Part shown: piece after piece, positions 35,857 through 43,613 of the stretch
Layout of the letters: the number at the start of each line of letters is the position of its first letter
Numbering within the stretch: position 1 is the first letter of the stretch
Assembly: GCA_049966795.1 (NCBI GenBank)
Contig: JBMFTY010000004.1
Span: forward strand, 1-61,307
Reading direction: 5' to 3'
DNA: 61,307 nt
From: Thermoplasmata archaeon
Lineage (GTDB): Archaea; Thermoplasmatota; Thermoplasmata; Thermoplasmatales; GCA-001856825
Translations under genes and position numbers: made by a program
Notes under the pieces: generated by a model
The model's input: only the letters and a program-made list of their open reading frames with translations
The model's database searches: none
Told to the model about the DNA's origin: nothing

Positions 35857-36102
35857 ATGAAGGAATTTCACAACTTCAGCCTGAAGGAGGGATCAAGGGT
35901 AAAGGTCGTTCTGAGGTCGGGGGACGAGAGCATCACGATAGATGGGGAATTCAAGGGCCTTTCGGACACGTTGCAGCCCCTGCTTTACGTCTCAAGCGGG
36001 AAGAAGAGCTATCTTGTGAACATGCTTGATATCATTTACATCGAGACGGAGGAGGAGCTCGAAGAAGTGGAAAGCAGCAAGAAGACGGATTACCTTTTTT
36101 AG
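35857..36102 (+). CDS. Hypothetical small protein, possible Sm-like beta-barrel with acidic tail
   Basis: 81 aa, starting 3 nt after the usp stop. GSRVKVVLRSGDESITIDGEFKG...LVNMLDIIYIE loosely resembles Sm1/Sm2 spacing. This is a weak call. Confidence 0.4.
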   Translation: MKEFHNFSLKEGSRVKVVLRSGDESITIDGEFKGLSDTLQPLLYVSSGKKSYLVNMLDIIYIETEEELEEVESSKKTDYLF

Positions 36103-36128
36103 CAGGAGCGTCCACATTTGACCCTTTG

Positions 36129-36722
36129 ATGATTGAGGAACGGCGAGGTAAAATATTTTTATCCTATTTTCATGCAAATATATTGAAACTGGGCGTACTC
36201 GCTAAGGATTTCAGGGTTTACAACAGGCTGATGAACCTGTTGAAGGGCATGGACCAGTCCTTTGTTTCCCTGTCTCCGGATGATAACTATTCATCATTCG
36301 ATCTGGTTTTCACGGATCTGGACCTGAGGGGGAAGAATGTCTTCAGGACAGATGGGGAGGAGGAGTTCAGGATAAGGCAGCTCGTGAAGTCCAGGAACAG
36401 CGTGAATATCGTCGTTGGCATAGATCCGGGCCCCACGCCCGGCGTTGCGACGCTTGCGGACAATGTTGTCATAGACAGGAGGAGCATCTACAATATGGGG
36501 GAAATCAGGGATTACGTGGCAAGGGTCAGCAGGGAGTGCAGGTACAGGAGCTTCGTGGTGAAGATAGGCGATGGCGACAGAAGGTACAGGAACCAGATCA
36601 TAAAGAGCCTCTACGGTTTCCGCCTGCAGATAGTCAACGAGAAGGGCAGCTCAAGGACCACGAAGAGGGGGGACGATTCCAGGTCTGCCGTGAACATAGC
36701 GCTCAGCAACGATATCCTCTGA
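36129..36722 (+). CDS. Putative RNase H-fold nuclease (RuvX/YqgF- or RuvC-like C-terminal domain)
   Basis: About 197 aa. IVVGIDPGPTPGVATL (first catalytic Asp strand) and DDSRSAVNIAL near the C-terminus resemble YqgF/RuvC-type motifs. The N-terminal ~95 aa are unassigned. Confidence 0.45.
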   Translation: MIEERRGKIFLSYFHANILKLGVLAKDFRVYNRLMNLLKGMDQSFVSLSPDDNYSSFDLVFTDLDLRGKNVFRTDGEEEFRIRQLVKSRNSVNIVVGIDPGPTPGVATLADNVVIDRRSIYNMGEIRDYVARVSRECRYRSFVVKIGDGDRRYRNQIIKSLYGFRLQIVNEKGSSRTTKRGDDSRSAVNIALSNDIL

Positions 36723-36725
36723 AGC

Positions 36726-37478
36726 TCACTTCTTCCACTTCGGTCTTCTCTTTCTTGCGTAATAGCCTGAGATGAGTATGACCGTCAGTATTATCACCAG
36801 AAATGCCGCGATACCTATGTATATGTATGATATGAATGGATTTCCGGCCTGCACTTTGAACGAATAGCTGCCGCCGCTTGCAAGCTGAAGGAGAGTGCTG
36901 TTCAGGGAAATCGTGACCGTATATACGCCTACGGGAAGCTTGCCCGAGACCCATTCGTAGGTTACGTTGCTAGTTGAATTCCTTGAAATGTTCACTATCT
37001 TGTTTCCCACGTATTTCCCGTTCACGCTGAACGTAACGTTGACCCCCGTTATGTTGAAATCCGTTGGATTCTTGATCGTCGCGGTCAGGAGCGTGAACGT
37101 GTTGACCTTCACGACTGACGTCAGATTGTAGTGGTACATCTTCCCCTGCAGGTTTGCAACCACCTGGAAGAAGAGGAAGAGCGTTGTTGGGGTCGAAGGT
37201 GATTTTATCGTGAATACTGCAGGTCCAGAAGTGAGACCCTTGTCATAGCTTGGAGATATCGGGGACGCTCCGGTCAGGTTGTAGCCGGAGAGTATCATCG
37301 TTACAGAATAATTCGTGAAGATCTGCTGGACATATACCGAATAGTTGAAAGACGAGTTTACGGCAACCGTGGAGGGGCCGACGACCGTTACAGGTCCGCT
37401 CGAAACGTTTCCCGAAGTCCCCGGGACGATGAGAAGGGAAACGGCAGCGAGGAGAAGAATGACGGCGACGATTTTCAT
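36726..37478 (-). CDS. Secreted, C-terminally anchored sequon-rich surface (glyco)protein
   Basis: 250 aa. Signal peptide MKIVAVILLLAAVSLLIVPGTSG. I count 12 N-x-S/T sequons by hand. C-terminal TM helix plus basic tail RKRRPKWKK. ATGA overlap with the aglB stop (37475..37478). Confidence 0.7.
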   Translation of the reverse strand: MKIVAVILLLAAVSLLIVPGTSGNVSSGPVTVVGPSTVAVNSSFNYSVYVQQIFTNYSVTMILSGYNLTGASPISPSYDKGLTSGPAVFTIKSPSTPTTLFLFFQVVANLQGKMYHYNLTSVVKVNTFTLLTATIKNPTDFNITGVNVTFSVNGKYVGNKIVNISRNSTSNVTYEWVSGKLPVGVYTVTISLNSTLLQLASGGSYSFKVQAGNPFISYIYIGIAAFLVIILTVILISGYYARKRRPKWKK

Positions 37479-40400
37479 GCCCTGTTCCTCCTCCTGAATG
37501 CTATCATCGCAATCACCGTTGCGAGGACGATGAAAACTGAAAGGCCGTAAATGTAGTACTGCTGCACCGCCGGAGAATAGGGGACAAGCCCGCTCCCCTC
37601 ACCCTTCCCCTTCATCACGCTCAGGGAAGGAGGGTGAAGCGAGGTGGAAAGGACGAACGTGTTGTTCTCGTATGCCAGGAGAATTATAATTTGTTTTCCA
37701 TATATGCTGGAACCCTTTGTTGACGTTACAGTGAGGTATGTTGTGTTGTTGGAGAATGCGTAAACGGCGCCCCTATATGACAGGGAGCCGTTGAACGTGA
37801 TGTTAATCCCCTGTGAGGACAACTGTGCGGCATTCAGTATGCTCCCGTTCACCACCGTTATGGCATTTCCCTTGTTGGATATGATGAGGGGAACTTCAAT
37901 AGTGTTCCCGGAGATTTTTCCGGTGGTGTTTACCACCCTCGCGGTCACATCGTAAAACTTCGGAACGGTAACGTTCACCGTTATCTCCCTGTAGTCGGTG
38001 CCGTAGTAGACGCGGATGTTAACAGCGCTGGTCCCAGCAGGCTCACCCTTCGGTACTGTTATTGTTACGTTCATGACTCCCATGGAATACGGGGTGAGAT
38101 TCATCACCCCGCCCTTCACTGTGAAGGTGGTAGCCCCCTGCACCGAGAAGTTCAGGGGGATGTTGGAGTTGCTTGTTATTATCATTGGGAACGTTATGGA
38201 CTGCCCGGCCTTCAGAACGGGGGAGCCGGCCTCCGGGAAGAAAGATACACTCACGTTCTTCACTATCTTGAATGCAAGGGTGGCGGAGCTTATTCCGGAT
38301 ACGTTCACAGTCTGATTTACCACGTACAGATCGCGGATGCCGTAGTAAACGTAGTAAGTCCTAGCTGAGAAGTGATACGATCCGTTTGGAAGATATATTA
38401 TTCCTTCGGGGTTGAGGTAATAGCTCGCCCCTAGCCTGACCATTCCAAGATAGGTGGTGTTGTTTAGGTATGTACCGTAGTTCAGCGGGTAGGCCCTGGA
38501 CATAGTCGCGTTCACGTACGTGACCGGAGATGAGACGTTCACATCGGAGAAATAGGCCGTGCTGCCAGATCTTATGTATATTGAATACTGGCCGTAGGGG
38601 ATGCTTATCACGTTGCCAAGGAGGCTCGTTTCATTCCTCGGGCCCTGAACGGTGAAAGTGCCATAAGAAGCTCCCGGGGCGTTCACGATGAGATCTGAGG
38701 TGAGAAGCCTGAGCTGCGGGGAAAGGGTTATCCGCTGCGGGGATGAGATGTAGACGGAACTTGAGGCGTAGTATTCATAAGTTCCGTTCACCCTTCTCTC
38801 AAGCGTGAACGTGTAATTTCCCTCCGGCAGCAGGATGCTCCCTGACCATGTGATCCTCCCGAAGCTTCCAGAAATCGTGATGTTGGAGGGCAAGGTGACG
38901 TTGAATCCGCTCACGTAGCTCGGTGAGAATGTTTCGTTCCCTTTCAGGTCGAGAGTTCCAAGAAATGCCTTCCCTCCAGAGTAGGAATATAGGGTGTAGT
39001 TGCCTAGGGGAAGGGTTGAAGTCAGGGAGGTGGAGACGAGGGACGAATTTCTGAATATGAACGCATTGTTTCCGAAAACCTGCAGGTTCGCGGATAATGT
39101 GACCCGCACGGGGAACCTCTGATCGCTCACCCCAGGAAGAACATGTATTTCAGTGCTTGAGGGAGACACTATTGACCCTGGCCTGGAGAAGGATATGCTG
39201 TAATTTCCAGGAGCGAGGGAAAGGGTGAACGGGCCTGTTCCCGTCACGGAGAAATTCCTGGGGCCTTCTATGGTCATGGTGATGGGATATGAGTAACTGG
39301 GGGCAATCGTAACAGTCACGTTTTCCTGGCGGAGGGATACGGACGTGATCGTCGATGATGTGACAGCATATCCCGGAGAGATGAAGGAGATGCCTTCAGG
39401 CACGAGGCCGTCGGGGACGTATATGTAATAGCTGCCGTTGGTGACCATCGAGTCGTAGTATGGTCTCCCGTTCACCGTCGTGGTGACAAGACCTTTCACC
39501 GCGGTTCCATCGTAGGTGACGTTTCCTCTTATCACGGATCCTGGGAGGCCGTCGAGATAGAGACTGAGGCTGCTGTTTGAAACCGAGAACTGCAGCCAGG
39601 AAACATAAAGATTGGAGTTGTATGTGCTGTGAGAGACCACTGCATACTGCCCAGAGGGGAGATAGGCGGAGAAATACCCGCCCGGGCCCGCGTAGTAGTC
39701 AAGAAGGGTGTTGCTGCCCGTCACAGTGACCTGCGAGCCGTTCTGTGGAAGACCGGAGACGGTAAAATGCCCTGTTACAAGGTATGCGGGAAGCAGGTTG
39801 AGGGAAATGTTCACGTTTCCAGTGACGTTGAATATGCCGCTGGCAGCGTAGTATCTACCACCGTAGTAGAGGGAAGTATACAAGGAATAAACCGAGAGTG
39901 CAACGCTTGCGTAACCAGTTCCGTTGTTCGTGAACACCGTTGAGAATTTACCGGAGCTGTCAAGGAGACTGACAGATGCGCTGACGGGCCTCCCTCCAAT
40001 TGTCGTTGTAATCTTGGCAGTGTAGTATCTTGAAAAACTGAGGCCAAGATCTGAAGTGGAGTTGTATTTCAGATCCACGGTGAAGTTGTCCCACAGCCCT
40101 CCGCTACACGCGGTAACGTTGTATATCCCCACGGGGAGATTTATCCTCTGGTCCGCTTTGGTGAGGTTGTATGTGACGGAGTAGCTACCCCTGCTGAACG
40201 TTATCTTGCTGCCCGGGCTCAGGCTGGCACCCTTGGCAAGTGTTGCATTTGCAACCCCGAACTCGATGGGCACATCCTTTGATGTGGCATTGGATGAGAT
40301 AACGATGGAGGTGACGTTGCTGTACCACTGCCCGAGGACGAACGCGGAAATGTTGTAGCTGTAAGGTTTGACGTCGTAGAGACCGTAGCTTCCGTTTTCA

Positions 40401-43400
40401 GTTGTGTTCACAAGATACGTGGTGTTGAAAGAGGAGTTGAAGAACTTCACTGTTCCCGCTATGGGAACGTCCGTGTTCGGGATGTAGATACCGTTGTTCA
40501 CGAGGTTGAGGAACAGGACTCCATTTACCCTGTCCGTGGGAAGGGCAAGGTTGTGGGTTATGTTCCACGTTGGAATGCCGTATGGAGTGAAGCTCTCCCT
40601 GTTGGCCTGCGCCTCCGATATAGTTATGTTGTAGGTGCTCAGGGTCTTGTTTCCGGCCATGCTGAGGGCGTTGTATTTCCCTGTGGAGAATACAAGGGTA
40701 TCGTTCCCGGCAACGGCAAATATGGAATAGTAGCCAGAGGCATTTGTGAGCACCGTCATGTGGGGTATGCCGTACTGGTCATCCAGCGTGACCCTAATAC
40801 CCCCTATTGGCTGTCCAGCGGTATTGGTGACCCTTCCCTGGATGATCGCTCCCGGATAATACTGAAGCGCAACGAAATCATTCTCCAGAACCTGCGGCGG
40901 AGGGTACATGTCCACGGTTCCATCGTGATTCTTCATGTATTGGTATCCCTGCTCAAGGGTGACCGTTTTCCACGCACTGCTGTGGTTCTGGTAGTCCGTA
41001 TAGGGATTCCACAGCACAGTCTTGTAGACGAGCTCGAAGTTAGGCATCCCCCACCCTTGCATGGTGGGATATGAGGACAGGTTGGAACTTATGCCGGGTA
41101 TTCCGGATTTTGCTCCCACGGCGGATGGCGGGTAGCCGATCATCCCCCTGTATATCGTGGTGTTGTAGAATGCGGGAGTATAATTTATGCTGTAGCTCAC
41201 GGCAGTGTCGCCTGGAGGGAAGTCCTGGAGAAGGTATGTCCTTCCTTGGGTGTCAGTCACGGTGATGTTGTAGAACGAAATAGGTATCACCTCCCCCGAG
41301 GCATTGACCCACGGGAAGTCCCCGAGGTAGGCAGGAGCATAGAATATCCCCGTATTTGTTCCGTTGAAGGGGAAGAGGCCCGAATCTATGCCTATGTAGC
41401 TCATGTACCTGTTCATCTTCTGTTCCAGAGCCTGGTAAAGGTTGATGAGTGTTCCAAGAGGATACTTGTTCGCAAGATAGTGCTCCACGAGTATGTATGG
41501 TGCGTCACCAGACTGCACCTTCTCGTAGTTCCCGAAGAAAGAGGGGTCGGAATATATTTCCTGCACATATGCGTTCGGGTCAATCTCGTAGTTCATGATC
41601 GTATATGCACCGTCCTGTCCAAGATATTGGATGAGAATGGGGGTGATCCCTGAGGAATTGAACGTGCCGGAGGAGTAGTTTGAAAGCATCCTTGCTATCA
41701 TCACCCCGAGGATTTGGCTCTCATTCTGTGCCAAAAGAATCTGAGCCGCCGGATAGATGCCATCCTGGAAGTTATCAGCCATAACGGGATGCCCGCCCTG
41801 CTCTATCGTCTGGAAACCGTAGTCCCACCACGATATGAAGGCAGGACGTTGGTCTGGAGGTAACTGGGCATCCTGGTTCTGGAACCATGATTCAAATCTG
41901 TTCAGGGGCTGACTGGGCGTCGCCAGCTCTGGTCCAAAGGCACCCAGGTAATATAAAGAGGAGGAAGAATAGTTGGCCGGCTTCAGGAAGGAGGGTGTGT
42001 CGTTGTAAAGCTGCCTGTCGTAGATCGTCTTGTTGTTGTAGGGTATCGCTGAATCAACTGCGTAAAATGTCGTTGGGACGACAAGAAGGAATATCACTAT
42101 GAGTATCGCAGCATAATGCGCAAACTTTATCTCTCTCCTAAGTGCCGTCCTGATGCTCCTTCCCCTGGCCTTCTCCACCGTCTCCCTGAACTGCAGTAGC
42201 TCGAAGGATTTCACCAGAACATACGAGGTGATTATTGAAGCTGCCACGGCACCGAAGTAGAGGAATTTCGATGCTATCATGCTTATAATTATGATTCCTC
42301 CGAAGTAAAGGATGGCAAGGGTCATGTTAAACGTCGTCGTCTTTATCCAGCGGTAGACCAGGTACGCAAGACCTATGAACGAGGCGAAGAACTGCAGGGC
42401 CCCGAATTCAAGCATGTCCTCTCCGAGCGGGAGTGACTGCGCTTCCGCGATCGTGTTGTATATCTTGTTCTTAATGAAATAGTGCTGCCCGGAGAGGATG
42501 GAGTAGATGAGATTCCTGTCCACCTTGTATAACAGAAGAATTGCCGCGATAGCGATGACTATGAACGCTCCAACCGAAAGTATCCAGGGCTTCTTTTCCA
42601 GTACAAGGAAATACATGGAGGCAACCAGGAGCGCGACCCAGAGAATGAGGGGATATTCAAACCTCACCGGGACAAAGTGGGCAACGTAGTACCAGGGAAA
42701 AGCTATGAGAAAACCGAATCCAAAGAATAGGTTTGAGACAAATATTGGCAGGGTGCTCTTCCTTTTCAGTGCAAATATCACTAGCTGCACCGCAGCCGCT
42801 CCAACGAGTATCAGGATCAGGGATATCGTCCCGACCCAGGTGAGCATTGATGCCGCCAAGGAGACCGCGGCAAGAAGGGAATACGTCAAGGACAGAGAAT
42901 TCCCCTTCAACGAGGATGCAAAGCTTGAAATCGAAGAGACCTGCCCTTCATACCTGAACGTGTTCACCGCCCTCAGGAAGTAGTAGATGAACATGACGCC
43001 GAAGAGGGCGGTGTAAATATCGAAGAGGCCCATCGTGGCTATGCTCTTCATAAGGGTTAGCGGGGACATCGCAACCAAGAGGGCCGCTACTATTCCCACC
43101 CTTCTGTCGAAAATCTCCTTTCCGAGGAAGTATGTTGGAAAAACGATGAGGGCACCGCCTATTGCCGTGCTCTCCAGGAACATCGTCATCGTCGATGCGT
43201 AAACCCCGCCTAGGAAGGGAGAGAAAGCGTAGCCGAGCATAACGGAGAGCCACATGAAGAACGGTGGCCTGGGGTTCTCGAGACCCATGGGGTAGTTTAG
43301 GCCAGGGTCGAAGAGGAGCTGATGGTGCGTGGCGAGGATGTGCTGTACTATTCTCATGTTATAATAGGCGTCCGAGCCTCCTGAGACAGCGTAATCAGCC

Positions 43401-43555
43401 TTAACTGCAGGACCTATTACGAAGAACGTACTGAGGAAAACGGAGAAGAAGAATATCAGAGTCAAAAATAGTCCAGTTTTCGTCTCCGTACTCATTCCCC
43501 TAATTAGGTCCGCAAAGCCTTTCTTTCTGCCCTCTGAATCCATCAACTCCACCAA
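37475..43555 (-). CDS. aglB: Archaeal oligosaccharyltransferase AglB/STT3 fused to a ~1,100-aa sequon-rich extracytoplasmic domain with a C-terminal TM anchor
   Basis: 2,026 aa. Polytopic N-terminus with SDAYYNMR in the first external loop (aa 61-68), a TIXE motif as TIAE (aa 368-371), and WWDYG (aa 576-580, nt 41816..41830). A CarboxypepD_reg-like segment GRVTNTAGQPIGGIRVTLDD...TNASGYYSI lies at about aa 903-945. A long S/T/N/Y/G-rich beta-type region follows. The terminal TM is YIYGLSVFIVLATVIAMIAF followed by RRRNRA. Confidence 0.85.
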   Translation of the reverse strand: MVELMDSEGRKKGFADLIRGMSTETKTGLFLTLIFFFSVFLSTFFVIGPAVKADYAVSGGSDAYYNMRIVQHILATHHQLLFDPGLNYPMGLENPRPPFFMWLSVMLGYAFSPFLGGVYASTMTMFLESTAIGGALIVFPTYFLGKEIFDRRVGIVAALLVAMSPLTLMKSIATMGLFDIYTALFGVMFIYYFLRAVNTFRYEGQVSSISSFASSLKGNSLSLTYSLLAAVSLAASMLTWVGTISLILILVGAAAVQLVIFALKRKSTLPIFVSNLFFGFGFLIAFPWYYVAHFVPVRFEYPLILWVALLVASMYFLVLEKKPWILSVGAFIVIAIAAILLLYKVDRNLIYSILSGQHYFIKNKIYNTIAEAQSLPLGEDMLEFGALQFFASFIGLAYLVYRWIKTTTFNMTLAILYFGGIIIISMIASKFLYFGAVAASIITSYVLVKSFELLQFRETVEKARGRSIRTALRREIKFAHYAAILIVIFLLVVPTTFYAVDSAIPYNNKTIYDRQLYNDTPSFLKPANYSSSSLYYLGAFGPELATPSQPLNRFESWFQNQDAQLPPDQRPAFISWWDYGFQTIEQGGHPVMADNFQDGIYPAAQILLAQNESQILGVMIARMLSNYSSGTFNSSGITPILIQYLGQDGAYTIMNYEIDPNAYVQEIYSDPSFFGNYEKVQSGDAPYILVEHYLANKYPLGTLINLYQALEQKMNRYMSYIGIDSGLFPFNGTNTGIFYAPAYLGDFPWVNASGEVIPISFYNITVTDTQGRTYLLQDFPPGDTAVSYSINYTPAFYNTTIYRGMIGYPPSAVGAKSGIPGISSNLSSYPTMQGWGMPNFELVYKTVLWNPYTDYQNHSSAWKTVTLEQGYQYMKNHDGTVDMYPPPQVLENDFVALQYYPGAIIQGRVTNTAGQPIGGIRVTLDDQYGIPHMTVLTNASGYYSIFAVAGNDTLVFSTGKYNALSMAGNKTLSTYNITISEAQANRESFTPYGIPTWNITHNLALPTDRVNGVLFLNLVNNGIYIPNTDVPIAGTVKFFNSSFNTTYLVNTTENGSYGLYDVKPYSYNISAFVLGQWYSNVTSIVISSNATSKDVPIEFGVANATLAKGASLSPGSKITFSRGSYSVTYNLTKADQRINLPVGIYNVTACSGGLWDNFTVDLKYNSTSDLGLSFSRYYTAKITTTIGGRPVSASVSLLDSSGKFSTVFTNNGTGYASVALSVYSLYTSLYYGGRYYAASGIFNVTGNVNISLNLLPAYLVTGHFTVSGLPQNGSQVTVTGSNTLLDYYAGPGGYFSAYLPSGQYAVVSHSTYNSNLYVSWLQFSVSNSSLSLYLDGLPGSVIRGNVTYDGTAVKGLVTTTVNGRPYYDSMVTNGSYYIYVPDGLVPEGISFISPGYAVTSSTITSVSLRQENVTVTIAPSYSYPITMTIEGPRNFSVTGTGPFTLSLAPGNYSISFSRPGSIVSPSSTEIHVLPGVSDQRFPVRVTLSANLQVFGNNAFIFRNSSLVSTSLTSTLPLGNYTLYSYSGGKAFLGTLDLKGNETFSPSYVSGFNVTLPSNITISGSFGRITWSGSILLPEGNYTFTLERRVNGTYEYYASSSVYISSPQRITLSPQLRLLTSDLIVNAPGASYGTFTVQGPRNETSLLGNVISIPYGQYSIYIRSGSTAYFSDVNVSSPVTYVNATMSRAYPLNYGTYLNNTTYLGMVRLGASYYLNPEGIIYLPNGSYHFSARTYYVYYGIRDLYVVNQTVNVSGISSATLAFKIVKNVSVSFFPEAGSPVLKAGQSITFPMIITSNSNIPLNFSVQGATTFTVKGGVMNLTPYSMGVMNVTITVPKGEPAGTSAVNIRVYYGTDYREITVNVTVPKFYDVTARVVNTTGKISGNTIEVPLIISNKGNAITVVNGSILNAAQLSSQGINITFNGSLSYRGAVYAFSNNTTYLTVTSTKGSSIYGKQIIILLAYENNTFVLSTSLHPPSLSVMKGKGEGSGLVPYSPAVQQYYIYGLSVFIVLATVIAMIAFRRRNRA

Positions 43556-43613
43556 TTGTTCCGCCTAATCAGAATCCCCAATTAAAATCTTTGCAGTTGA
43601 TATATCCTCGCGG

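Follow-up and report, generated by a model that had tools for sequence, protein, structure and literature searches.

The giant AglB encoded in the window (here, the whole 61,307-nucleotide stretch of the Thermoplasmata archaeon contig JBMFTY010000004.1 that was analysed) is an ordinary orthologue of the Thermoplasmatota giant AglB family and not a unique invention. The best explanation, to which we give somewhat better than even weight, is that it is a Thermoplasmatota-type AglB that has a constitutive structural arm and a paralogous partner protein. The coordinates of the features of the two genes are collected in Table 1.

Table 1. Features of the aglB locus, with positions in the window.
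Feature	Position	Strand	Basis and remarks
aglB, giant oligosaccharyltransferase	37475..43555	(-)	2,026 aa from TTG; ORF, Pfam, homologues
Possible archaeal TATA box, TTTTAAT	43581..43587	(-)	About 30 nt upstream of TTG/GTG; putative, read by eye
Polytopic membrane domain, aa 29-500	42056..43471	(-)	Hydropathy peaks; alignment to 3WAJ
Extracellular catalytic and globular region, aa 501-900	40856..42055	(-)	Motifs; alignment to 3WAJ
First transthyretin-like (CarboxypepD_reg) beta-sandwich, aa 903-980	40616..40849	(-)	PF13620; AlphaFold2 strands
About ten more beta-sandwiches, aa 998-1761	38273..40564	(-)	AlphaFold2; sequon-rich, few charged residues
CARDB-like beta-sandwich pair, aa 1767-1972	37640..38257	(-)	hhalign to the small protein; paralogous
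C-terminal TM helix and basic cytoplasmic tail (...FRRRNRA), aa 1995-2026	37478..37573	(-)	Hydropathy; AlphaFold2
ATGA stop/start overlap, aglB to small gene	37475..37478	(-)	Read from the sequence
250-aa type I membrane protein	36726..37478	(-)	ORF, homologues; AlphaFold2 pLDDT 82

Catalytic region of the giant AglB

The original prediction had read a 2,026-aa ORF with three motifs of the AglB family, and these were reproduced from the sequence: SDAYYNMR at aa 61-68, which includes the EL1 Asp62, TIAE at aa 368-371, which includes the EL5 Glu371, and WWDYG at aa 576-580 (nt 41816..41830). Alternative starts for this ORF are the GTG that forms codon 2 and the ATG that forms codon 5 (at 43543); the public gene call has an ATG start and gives a protein of 2,022 aa. 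The prediction that the first part of the protein is an AglB was borne out by a match to Pfam STT3 (PF02516, aa 61-348, 42.4 bits versus a cut-off of 24.5) and by alignment of aa 58-600 to residues 43-574 of Archaeoglobus fulgidus AglB-L (3WAJ/3WAK/5GMY), a structurally characterised member of the same family (phmmer, E 1.1e-15). The NCBIfam model archaeo_STT3 also matched the giant AglB (E 1.8e-55), and there was a weak AglB_core-like Pfam match at aa 562-615.

In the comparison with the A. fulgidus enzyme, D62 was paired with D47, K170 with R154 and TIAE with TIAE (E360), and WWDYG was matched, such that both proteins have the EL1 Asp, a basic residue at the place of R154, the TIXE Glu and WWDYG. 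The roles of the EL1 Asp, the TIXE Glu and related AglB residues have been described (PMC7226087). Throughout the alignment of the orthologues (A3), SWWDYGF was unchanging. Judged from these alignments, the protein is an AglB/STT3 (GT66) whose catalytic motifs are largely intact, and its catalytic mechanism is presumably shared with that of A. fulgidus AglB-L.

The second metal motif differs, as D161-x-H163 of A. fulgidus (D161-H162-H163) stands opposite L177-F178-D179, which is acidic at the third position only. Elsewhere in Thermoplasmatota this site is highly variable (DHD, DWD, GYDD, DGRMHTPE, YANYLSF), and the "GLFD" variant is that of an I-plasma-like subclade to which the window copy belongs; the I-plasma orthologue is 61% identical to the window AglB. 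The giant AglB is probably the N-oligosaccharyltransferase of this organism, and we assume that it is fully competent in catalysis despite the L-F-D metal site.

An archaeosortase-type C-terminal sorting signal was considered and rejected. The giant AglB scored 188.7 bits against TIGR04154 (archaeosortase A-associated AglB), for which NCBIfam sets a cut-off of 450 bits. None of the NCBIfam models of CTERM sorting domains matched it at E <= 0.1, and its tail is without a PGF motif.

Spread and conservation

Database searches identified 43 full-length homologues of the giant AglB with 26-80% identity, and the nearest public relatives of the window copy were only 75-80% identical to it. Among the 599 pattern-matching stretches listed from GTDB species genomes, 578 code for relatives, and the record titles of the best 80 were either of a Thermoplasmatota type or uninformative. 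The original prediction had proposed a survey for AglB homologues of more than 1,500 aa, and the species-representative genomes of Thermoplasmatota in GTDB yielded 64 complete orthologues of 2,028-2,218 aa (median 2,109, SD 48; 26-80% identity), all of which have WWDYG and a C-terminal TM helix with a basic tail (64/64). The cultured carriers include Thermoplasma volcanium, Cuniculiplasma and Oxyplasma, with the orthologue of T. volcanium GSS1 (TVG1271204) being 2,076 aa in length. An identical architecture, length class and C-terminal anchor were found in the public orthologues from these three, from I-plasma, from Aciduliprofundum/DHVE2 and from Methanomassiliicoccales MAGs, and the downstream partner gene is usually present in them, as it is here. 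Other length classes exist, a form of 1,425 aa in Acidiplasma, forms of 1,288-1,410 aa (P0045-P0047) and one of 3,180 aa in some relatives (P0044 and P0048), and the length of AglB is thus not absolutely fixed.

To judge from its orthologues, the giant two-anchor AglB is the standard form across Thermoplasmatota, cultured species included, and no one-off fusion. The size of the protein, put forward originally as unusual, is so in relation to biochemically characterised AglBs, whereas within Thermoplasmatota it is the norm. A. fulgidus AglB-L (875 aa in the crystallised construct) ends after the external globular domain; unlike it, the window protein has about 1,100 more residues of beta-sandwiches, a second anchor and a coupled partner gene. 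To our knowledge, the structural and biochemical work on AglB has all been on proteins of about 600-1,000 aa. The architecture is present phylum-wide and is confined neither to organisms that lack a wall nor to the genome at hand.

The sequences of giant AglBs have long been public, with annotations that differ between orthologues (hypothetical, STT3 domain, GT39, carboxypeptidase regulatory-like, AglB). In full-text literature searches AglB was mentioned for the AMD plasmas and for Cuniculiplasma, and we found no paper that describes its size, its arm or its partner subunit.

The extracellular arm and the second anchor

The extension had been predicted to start with a CarboxypepD_reg-like beta-sandwich, and a match to PF13620 at aa 905-964 (34.7 bits versus a cut-off of 32.3) was consistent with this. 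In 19 divergent orthologues, aa 903-980 formed the best-conserved segment of the protein, with a mean identity of 0.54 versus 0.42-0.50 in the enzyme part; in the remainder of the arm the identity was about 0.25 and the total length was constant. The AlphaFold2 model of the arm (m6aa80bea2d67, pLDDT 84.6) is all-beta with a terminal helix at aa 1995-2025, which coincides with a hydropathy peak at aa 2002-2020 that is followed by RRRNRA, and Cys makes up only 0.1% of aa 901-2026. These results agree with the earlier description of the extension as all-beta, nearly Cys-free and re-anchored by a TM helix of its own. The domain parsing that had been proposed with it gave an arm that is predicted to consist of about 11 transthyretin-like and 2 CARDB-like beta-sandwiches (about 13 in all), followed by the TM helix, where the domain boundaries are a by-eye reading of the secondary-structure string of the model.

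The arms of divergent orthologues matched the Pfam families CarboxypepD_reg, NOMO_5th, NOMO_3rd, NOMO1-like_9th, SpaA and SdrD_B, and there was a weak match of aa 1799-1922 of the window protein to choice_anch_T (NCBIfam). Foldseek matches of the arm model were only to generic multi-Ig proteins, with no enzymatic fold among them. NOMO, a subunit of the eukaryotic BOS complex, strings together about a dozen transthyretin/Ig-like beta-sandwiches ahead of a single TM helix, which leads into a short tail in the cytosol; a role as a lumenal spacer has been proposed for it. B. anthracis TIE (BaTIE), a reported NOMO look-alike, was among the Foldseek matches. However, NOMO is free-standing with a signal peptide, while here the string is joined to the enzyme and never free-standing. 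The window AglB had no match to the NOMO family in Pfam at E <= 0.1, and the NOMO matches of its relatives (NOMO_5th, NOMO_3rd) reflect a general transthyretin-like similarity within a very widespread superfamily.

A search with aa 901-2026 against 1.84 billion representative proteins gave 142 matches at E <= 1e-3, nearly all of them long AglB fusions or short pieces. Every long match was an AglB fusion, and no free-standing homologue of the arm was found. Six mid-sized matches (P0103, P0112, P0116, P0118, P0121 and P0192) were considered as stand-alone proteins and rejected as N-truncated, since they start in the AglB globular region or at the junction, which marks them as truncated gene calls.

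The small coupled gene

The gene that follows aglB was confirmed to have the ATGA coupling, the 12 sequons and the TM-plus-tail design that had been ascribed to it. The encoded protein has a signal peptide (aa 1-23), two beta-sandwiches, a TM helix (aa 216-243) and the tail RKRRPKWKK. It has 33 homologues of 228-257 aa, and in an alignment of these small proteins (A1) the P-K-W-K of the tail was unchanging and GNP stood ahead of the helix. The small gene adjoins aglB downstream in 50 of 64 loci, and the stop and start codons overlap in 42 of the 50 paired loci (by 4 nt in 36 and by 1 nt in 6). The pair is also present in the distant loci L001 and L002. At least nine loci that have room downstream carry no adjoining small gene.

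A profile of the small proteins aligned to the C-terminal 270 aa of AglB with an hhalign probability of 96.8% (E 3e-10), versus 3% and 1.6% in control comparisons to the mid-extension. By profile comparison, the small protein is distantly paralogous to the C-terminal module of AglB, which points to a partner subunit and not simply to another substrate. CARDB was matched at E <= 0.1 by 27 of 28 small-protein homologues (best 4e-5) and is listed by Pfam for the small partners in L001 and L002; the small protein of the window scored 17.1 bits versus a cut-off of 22.7.

Ribophorin I/II, OST48/Wbp1 and Swp1 are type I proteins with lumenal beta-sandwiches that accompany STT3. The 250-aa protein shares with these eukaryotic accessory subunits its topology and its presumed co-expression with the catalytic subunit, an analogy only that is without significant sequence similarity. 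Ribophorin_II_2nd (PF23861) was matched by the 250-aa protein with 14.2 bits versus a cut-off of 23.4 (E 0.049), and at E <= 0.1 by only 5 of 28 small-protein homologues (best E 0.012). For the small-protein and arm models, Foldseek gave only generic two-Ig or multi-Ig matches, such as transglutaminase barrels, alpha-2-macroglobulin, hydin and BaTIE, and no OST subunit was among the top 50 PDB matches of either model, on the assumption that the PDB includes the OST complexes of yeast and human. The small protein and the arm were therefore not accepted as homologues of eukaryotic OST subunits, the Pfam matches being below threshold and the Foldseek matches generic Ig. In L002, the pair is followed by a WCGPC thioredoxin gene that matches Pfam OST3_OST6, as it is by similar genes in L041, L072 and L080.

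Sequons and genomic surroundings

The original estimate of about 65 sequons after the membrane domain was close, as we counted 67 past aa 500 (68 in the whole of AglB). There were 54 in aa 901-2026, versus 18.5 +/- 3.8 expected from composition-preserving shuffles, and the 12 in the 250-aa protein compared with 3.6 +/- 1.5. These two ORFs were the only sequon-enriched ones within the window. The other ORFs are cytoplasmic or polytopic and hence give no secreted-protein baseline for sequons in the window, and for this reason a cross-phylum comparison was used.

Across the phylum the sequon density spanned 0.75-6.8 per 100 aa, with z values of 4-11 in members poor in D/E, versus 0.7-2.5 in several D/E-rich members. 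Chance-level examples with the same architecture were L058 (0.91 per 100 aa, z 0.7), L060 (0.75 per 100 aa, z 0.8) and L071 (z 1.1), and D/E-rich, Methanomassiliicoccales-like members kept the architecture with sequons near chance. Sequon saturation is thus lineage-specific and strong in acid-adapted, D/E-poor clades. Within the clade, the residues of sequons were retained more often than other N (0.68 versus 0.55) and other S/T (0.73 versus 0.53), and 16 of 67 sequons were conserved in all 8 relatives. As the architecture and length are constant while the sequon density varies, the architecture is not conserved for glycan load. The arm is an old component of the enzyme whose length has been conserved, and its heavy glycosylation, with sequons that are probably occupied by glycans, is a secondary overlay.

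The neighbours of the two genes in the window include an aldo/keto reductase, an MFS transporter, Usp, an EndoIII-like HhH-GPD protein, a PIN domain protein and a tRNA-intron endonuclease. An agl gene cluster around aglB was rejected, as glycosyltransferases were absent among the neighbours. No S-layer family was among the Pfam/NCBIfam matches.

Proposed role of the arm and its partner

In the explanation we prefer, the 13-TM-type membrane domain and the external WWDYG core (aa 1-900) would pass a lipid-linked glycan to the Asn of N-x-S/T. The arm (aa 903-1972) would depart from the enzyme at the conserved first domain and rejoin the membrane via the TM helix and basic tail at the end of the protein, such that the giant AglB, of about 230 kDa before glycans are added, may be regarded as a doubly anchored arch. 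From about 13 domains, the arch is estimated to measure about 20-25 nm. The 250-aa protein most likely pairs with the membrane-proximal end of the arm, which would make the two genes an OST module. From its conserved length and low sequence identity, we take the arm to be a probable surface scaffold or spacer of fixed length, as opposed to a client protein that was fused to the enzyme. In acid-adapted lineages, that of the window included, the arm has been shorn of charged residues and filled with sequons. The catalytic domain of the same or of a neighbouring AglB probably glycosylates it, and the glycans would form a protective shield as a contribution to the glycocalyx.

The original prediction had instead proposed a self-glycosylating coat module, in which the main task of the arm and the small protein would be to carry glycans: the enzyme would glycosylate its own tail along with a co-translated client, and so form a coat for a wall-less cell. 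The sequon excess of the two proteins, their being the only sequon-rich ORFs in the window and the preferential retention of sequon positions are in keeping with this, and many Thermoplasmatales are without an S-layer (PMC5155288). Glycosylation in cis would also be physically plausible, as the catalytic domain is made before the arm. However, the architecture, the length and the partner gene persist at chance sequon density, and the search for the arm found no free-standing protein as a pre-existing substrate. A repeat coat protein should, moreover, vary in domain number, yet the SD of the length was 48 aa over 64 species, and the abundances expected of an enzyme and of a coat would be hard to square in a 1:1 fusion. 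We consider this proposal unlikely. The idea of an enzyme fused to its own substrate was only partly supported, given the absence of a stand-alone arm, the variable sequon density and the paralogy of the partner. That the fusion is an artefact, with a frameshift or a chimeric assembly joining AglB to a surface-protein gene near nt 40,850, is so improbable that we discount it, as nothing was found in its favour, conservation within the protein peaks in the region of the junction, and the ORF is a single one in 64 independent genomes, complete ones of cultured species among them. It recurs in the homologues, in the GTDB genomes and in T. volcanium, and the fusion is genuine.

The arm and the small protein could also be built-in accessory subunits of an independently evolved multi-subunit OST, which would hold or present unfolded acceptor polypeptides, or dock the enzyme to the Sec translocon. 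This is suggested by the conserved, translationally coupled gene pair, by the type I topology, lumenal beta-sandwiches and invariant cytoplasmic tail of the small protein, by a first arm domain conserved like the catalytic core, by the weak Ribophorin_II_2nd matches and by the OST3_OST6 thioredoxin gene. Against it, all the Ribophorin_II scores were below the Pfam cut-off and neither model retrieved an OST subunit among its top 50 PDB matches, the thioredoxin neighbour is limited to one sub-lineage and missing from the window, and about 1,000 poorly conserved residues far exceed what the presentation of substrates would need. We regard an accessory function of this kind as improbable. Prokaryotic oligosaccharyltransferases have been described as single-subunit enzymes (PMC7226087). 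A possibility that we raise tentatively, and which may well not hold, is that the Thermoplasmatota AglB is a multi-component OST, formed from a doubly anchored enzyme with an arch of about 13 domains and an obligate small paralogous subunit, that is an independent archaeal invention and in wall-less acidophiles a major bearer of surface glycans. Its scaffold or spacer, NOMO-like or ribophorin-like in function, would then be an integral part of it.

A whole archaeal phylum, including Thermoplasma, the acid-mine "plasmas", DHVE2 and the Methanomassiliicoccales gut methanogens, has an AglB of twice the usual size. If activity, the choice of substrates or the organisation of the surface depends on the arch and its partner, the view of the archaeal N-glycosylation machinery would change, there would be a cis-fused counterpart to set beside the eukaryotic accessory subunits, and the glycocalyx of Thermoplasma would have a concrete candidate for one of its structural elements. 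As there are cultured carriers (T. volcanium, Cuniculiplasma and Oxyplasma), these possibilities are directly testable.

Sequence and catalytic motifs of the giant AglB

AglB, the archaeal N-oligosaccharyltransferase (OST) of the STT3 family, is encoded in the window by an unbroken minus-strand ORF of 2,026 codons, counted from TTG. Its start codon is ambiguous among TTG, GTG and ATG: the public gene call for this protein (P0001) starts at the ATG and has 2,022 aa, and the GTG corresponds to the start of the homologue P0003. On our reading of the sequence, a possible TATA box lies ~30 nt upstream of the TTG/GTG start and could serve a near-leaderless operon of aglB and the small partner gene directly downstream, whose start ATG overlaps the aglB stop as ATGA. 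This overlap and the motifs of the original prediction (SDAYYNMR, TIAE, WWDYG, GRVTNTAGQ and RRRNRA) were all found where it had placed them. No other glycosylation genes were found near aglB within the window.

Features of aglB, the partner gene and their surroundings
Feature	Position (nt)	Strand	AglB residues	Remark
TTTTAAT	43581..43587			possible TATA box
aglB	37475..43555	-	1-2026	
Start candidates	43541..43555	-		TTG 43555, GTG 43552 (codon 2), ATG 43543 (codon 5)
SDAYYNMR			61-68	
L-F-D	43019..43027	-	177-179	second metal motif site, aligned to A. fulgidus D161-x-H163
TIAE			368-371	
WWDYG	41816..41830	-	576-580	
CarboxypepD_reg			903-980	Pfam-significant
GRVTNTAGQ			from 907	extension
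~Ten more domains			998-1761	same general kind, AlphaFold2 strand pattern
Two CARDB-like domains			1767-1972	end of arm
Hydrophobic segment			2002-2020	then C-terminal RRRNRA
Partner gene, 250 aa	36726..37478	-		
...RKRRPKWKK	36729..36755	-		partner cytoplasmic tail
198-aa ORF	36126..36722	+		converges on small gene; no Pfam match at E <= 0.001
81-aa ORF	35857..36102	+		converges on small gene; no Pfam match at E <= 0.001
Aldo/keto reductase		-		upstream of aglB, 58-nt gap
MFS transporter				flanking gene
Usp				flanking gene
HhH-GPD glycosylase				flanking gene
PIN-domain protein				flanking gene
tRNA-intron endonuclease				flanking gene

The protein scored 42.4 bits against Pfam STT3 (gathering score 24.5), and NCBIfam archaeo_STT3 matched aa 30-619 (E 1.8e-55), yet under the subfamily cut-off; with that score and no CTERM signal, the archaeosortase-A-associated AglB subfamily was rejected. 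Residues 58-600 aligned with residues 43-574 of the crystallised A. fulgidus AglB-L (3WAJ/5GMY), pairing D62 with D47, K170 with R154, TIAE with TIAE (E360) and WWDYG with WWDYG, residues with acceptor-activating and metal-site roles (PMC7226087). The sole departure among the catalytic motifs compared was L177-F178-D179 in place of D161-H162-H163.

This second metal motif was unusually plastic across Thermoplasmatota (loci L001-L082 of the GTDB species genomes), being DHD in Methanomassiliicoccales-like members, DWD in DHVE2, GYDD in an Aciduliprofundum-related group, GLFD in the I-plasma-like clade that includes the window, and DGRMHTPE in Thermoplasmataceae, Cuniculiplasma and Acidiplasma. 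Three MAGs (L057, L067 and L069) had YANYLSF, which contains no acidic residue. Since Thermoplasma N-glycosylates its membrane proteins (PMC11407970), we provisionally treat L-F-D as a variant site rather than a sign of inactivity, and the AglB metal site in Thermoplasmatota may have been remodelled. The window protein is a member of the AglB/STT3 family with an atypical second metal motif.

The fusion is genuine and widespread

The survey of long AglB homologues proposed in the original prediction showed them to be widespread across Thermoplasmatota. A search of a 5.8-billion-protein collection identified 43 full-length homologues (2,022-2,361 aa, 26-80% identity), all from Thermoplasmatales, Thermoplasmata or Thermoplasmatota MAGs. 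Scanning GTDB with one genome per species gave at least 599 pattern-matching stretches, 578 of those listed encoding relatives. The best 80 loci, whose titles were Thermoplasmatota-type or uninformative, included a hot-spring Thermoplasmatales MAG (75% identity), acid-mine I-plasma (61%), DHVE2, Aciduliprofundum, Cuniculiplasma, Ferroplasma, Acidiplasma aeolicum, Thermoplasmataceae, Methanomassiliicoccales and two complete chromosomes. Within these 80 were 64 complete ORFs of 2,028-2,218 aa (median 2,109, SD 48), every one of which had WWDYG at ~aa 510-620 and a C-terminal hydrophobic helix with at least three K/R among the last 12 residues.

Querying proteins again with the Cuniculiplasma copy identified cultured carriers: Thermoplasma volcanium GSS1 (TVG1271204, 2,076 aa), Thermoplasma sp. 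Kam2015 (2,081 aa), Oxyplasma meridianum (2,113 aa), Caldiplasma sukawensis (2,093 aa) and Cuniculiplasma SKW3 (2,111 aa). Also among these carriers is Acidiplasma, with a shorter form of 1,425 aa (L073) that has kept both anchor and partner. Length variants were also seen among the protein-search homologues: P0044 (3,179 aa) and P0048 (3,193 aa) are very acidic and have ~390 additional N-terminal polytopic residues, and P0045-P0047 (1,288-1,410 aa) bear fewer transthyretin-like domains, P0045 being without the C-terminal TM helix. In the MAG CAYMEF01 two distinct copies were found, L008 (57% identity to the window) and L010 (70%, on a 3.2-kb contig), for which a bin of mixed populations is a more probable explanation than paralogy.

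An artificial gene join near nt 40,850, whether by frameshift or misassembly, was one of the circumstances the original prediction had named as fatal to the fusion. It is excluded: the protein is a single ORF in 64 loci, and across 19 divergent orthologues mean identity peaked in the region of the junction and the first beta-sandwich (aa 903-980), at 0.54, compared with 0.42-0.50 for the enzyme part and ~0.25 for the remaining arm. The fusion of AglB to its arm (aa ~901-2026) is real and ancient.

Structure of the arm

The AlphaFold2 model of aa 880-2026 (37 homologues, mean pLDDT 84.6) is all-beta until a terminal helix at aa 1995-2025, with ~13 beta-sandwich domains counted by strand pattern, and agrees with the anchored, beta-type extension with a CarboxypepD_reg-like beginning that had been described from the sequence. 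In more divergent orthologues Pfam matched CarboxypepD_reg in up to six separate stretches, and also NOMO_5th, NOMO_3rd, NOMO1-like_9th, SpaA, SdrD_B and FixG_C. Foldseek against the PDB returned generic Ig-like strings for the arm (hydin-like ciliary proteins, alpha-2-macroglobulins, complement proteins and B. anthracis TIE), with no catalytic fold among the matches.

Searching 1.84 billion representative proteins with the arm gave 142 matches, nearly all of them proteins of 2,000-2,500 aa aligned from ~residue 900 on, and therefore AglB fusions. Six mid-sized matches that we inspected start within the AglB globular region or at the arm junction, which identifies them as gene calls truncated on the N-terminal side. 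No free-standing arm homologue was found in that collection.

A paralogous partner gene

The small protein has 33 homologues of 228-257 aa, one of which shares consecutive NCBI locus tags with an AglB homologue. For many of them the contig matches in length one that bears an AglB homologue. An ORF of 237-293 aa directly follows aglB in 50 of the 64 complete loci, overlapping it by 4 nt in 36 and by 1 nt in six, and the pair was found even at loci as distant as L001 and L002 (30% identity). In DHVE2, Aciduliprofundum and a few other lineages aglB had no adjacent partner though the contig has room. GNP is near-invariant ahead of the TM helix, all 28 homologues in the alignment have P-K-W-K in the cytoplasmic tail, and 30 of the 50 partner tails across the phylum contain PKW[KR]. 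Such conservation of the tail exceeds what a stop-transfer signal needs and suggests a specific cytoplasmic contact.

AlphaFold2 (pLDDT 82) predicted a signal peptide, two beta-sandwiches and a TM helix, for which Foldseek gave only generic two-Ig matches. CARDB matched 27 of 28 members; Ribophorin_II_2nd matched just five of the 28, each below threshold. Profile-profile comparison of the small protein with the last 270 AglB residues gave a probability of 96.8% (E 3e-10) and covered both domains, versus 3% and 1.6% for controls against a mid-arm segment. By this profile evidence the small protein and the AglB C-terminal end are distant paralogues, with a common design of two CARDB-like domains, TM helix and basic tail.

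In one Methanomassiliicoccales-like sub-lineage (L002:13442-13768, L041, L072 and L080) a thioredoxin gene (108-138 aa, WCGPC) lies directly 3' of the pair. The L002 copy also matches Pfam OST3_OST6, reminiscent of the eukaryotic OST3/OST6 thioredoxin-like OST subunits, but an ordinary cytoplasmic thioredoxin is just as likely.

Sequons and possible roles of the arm

Counting N-x-S/T (x not Pro), we found 68 sequons in the window AglB, 67 of them beyond residue 500, and 12 in the small protein, close to the ~65 and 12 counted by hand in the original prediction. The arm (aa 901-2026) has 54, versus 18.5 +/- 3.8 in composition-preserving shuffles, and the small protein's 12 compare with 3.6 +/- 1.5. 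Among non-overlapping window ORFs of at least 100 aa, enrichment was limited to these two genes (z 10.6 and 5.1; all others <=1.8). In eight relatives (46-75% identity), 60% of the 67 sequons are a sequon at the same column and 16 are shared by all eight; sequon Asn was retained at 0.68 versus 0.55 for other Asn, and the +2 Ser/Thr at 0.73 versus 0.53 for other Ser/Thr. Sequons within the window's clade thus look functional. In this organism the arm very probably stands at the cell surface as a heavily glycosylated structure.

These data partly support the original proposal that the enzyme is fused to its own substrate as a self-glycosylating coat module, in that the fusion is real and its sequons are enriched and preferentially retained. 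However, arm sequon density ranges from 0.75 to 6.8 per 100 residues across the phylum. D/E-poor, N-rich (acid-adapted) members have 4-5 per 100 (z 4-11), and several D/E-rich Methanomassiliicoccales-like members have ~1 (z 0.7-2.5) while retaining equal length, equal anchor and usually the partner. When loci L003-L081 were compared with the window, D+E of ~3-4% went with 4-7 sequons per 100 aa, and D+E of 11-17% with ~1-2.6 in most members, a relationship to charge depletion that resembles a general signature of acid adaptation in exposed protein. Heavy glycosylation is therefore a lineage-tied overlay, probably linked to habitat, and not the reason the architecture is conserved. Together with the lack of a free-standing arm homologue among the 1.84 billion proteins, the sequon-poor members make a fused substrate a poor description of the arm's origin or core function, and we consider the coat module unlikely.

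That the arm and small protein behave like accessory subunits, by handling substrates or docking to the translocon, appears equally improbable to us. The locus resembles multi-subunit OSTs in co-expressing a type I membrane partner with the catalytic subunit, and NOMO in having about a dozen transthyretin-like domains in a string with a TM helix; both resemblances are analogy only. Prokaryotic OSTs are stated to be single-subunit (PMC7226087). Membership of eukaryotic OST accessory-subunit families was rejected for arm and small protein, the Ribophorin_II_2nd matches being below threshold, as was NOMO membership, the window protein having no match and the arm never being found free-standing.

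We lean, by a modest degree, towards a composite of an active AglB, a doubly anchored scaffold or spacer arch and a paralogous partner, glycan-shielded in acidophiles. Its identity and architecture are near certain: catalytic motifs, a membrane-returning extracellular arm, a highly conserved first arm domain and a coupled paralogous partner are all present, and the topology fits 13 TMs, an external C-terminal domain and a positive-inside tail. The spacer and partner components are each offered tentatively. In this composite the enzyme would be active, with the first arm domain packing onto the catalytic core. The arm, conserved in total length and low in sequence identity, would arch between two membrane anchors with a span that is important, suggestive of a scaffold or spacer. 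At its membrane-proximal end, the two CARDB-like domains and the TM helix may associate with the small paralogue, and in acidophiles AglB, acting in cis or in trans, would glycan-shield the arch as part of the glycocalyx.

Sequences of this gene family have been publicly available since the T. volcanium genome, labelled 'hypothetical', 'STT3 domain-containing', 'glycosyltransferase family 39', 'carboxypeptidase regulatory-like domain-containing' or, sometimes, 'AglB'. The window copy is an ordinary orthologue of this phylum-wide family, so the idea of a unique self-glycosylating invention was not borne out. In a full-text literature search AglB of these organisms was mentioned merely as present, and no description was found of the doubled size, second anchor, conserved arm or paralogous partner. 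The giant AglB is genuine and open to testing, and represents a form of a well-known enzyme whose architecture has apparently not been described as a class.
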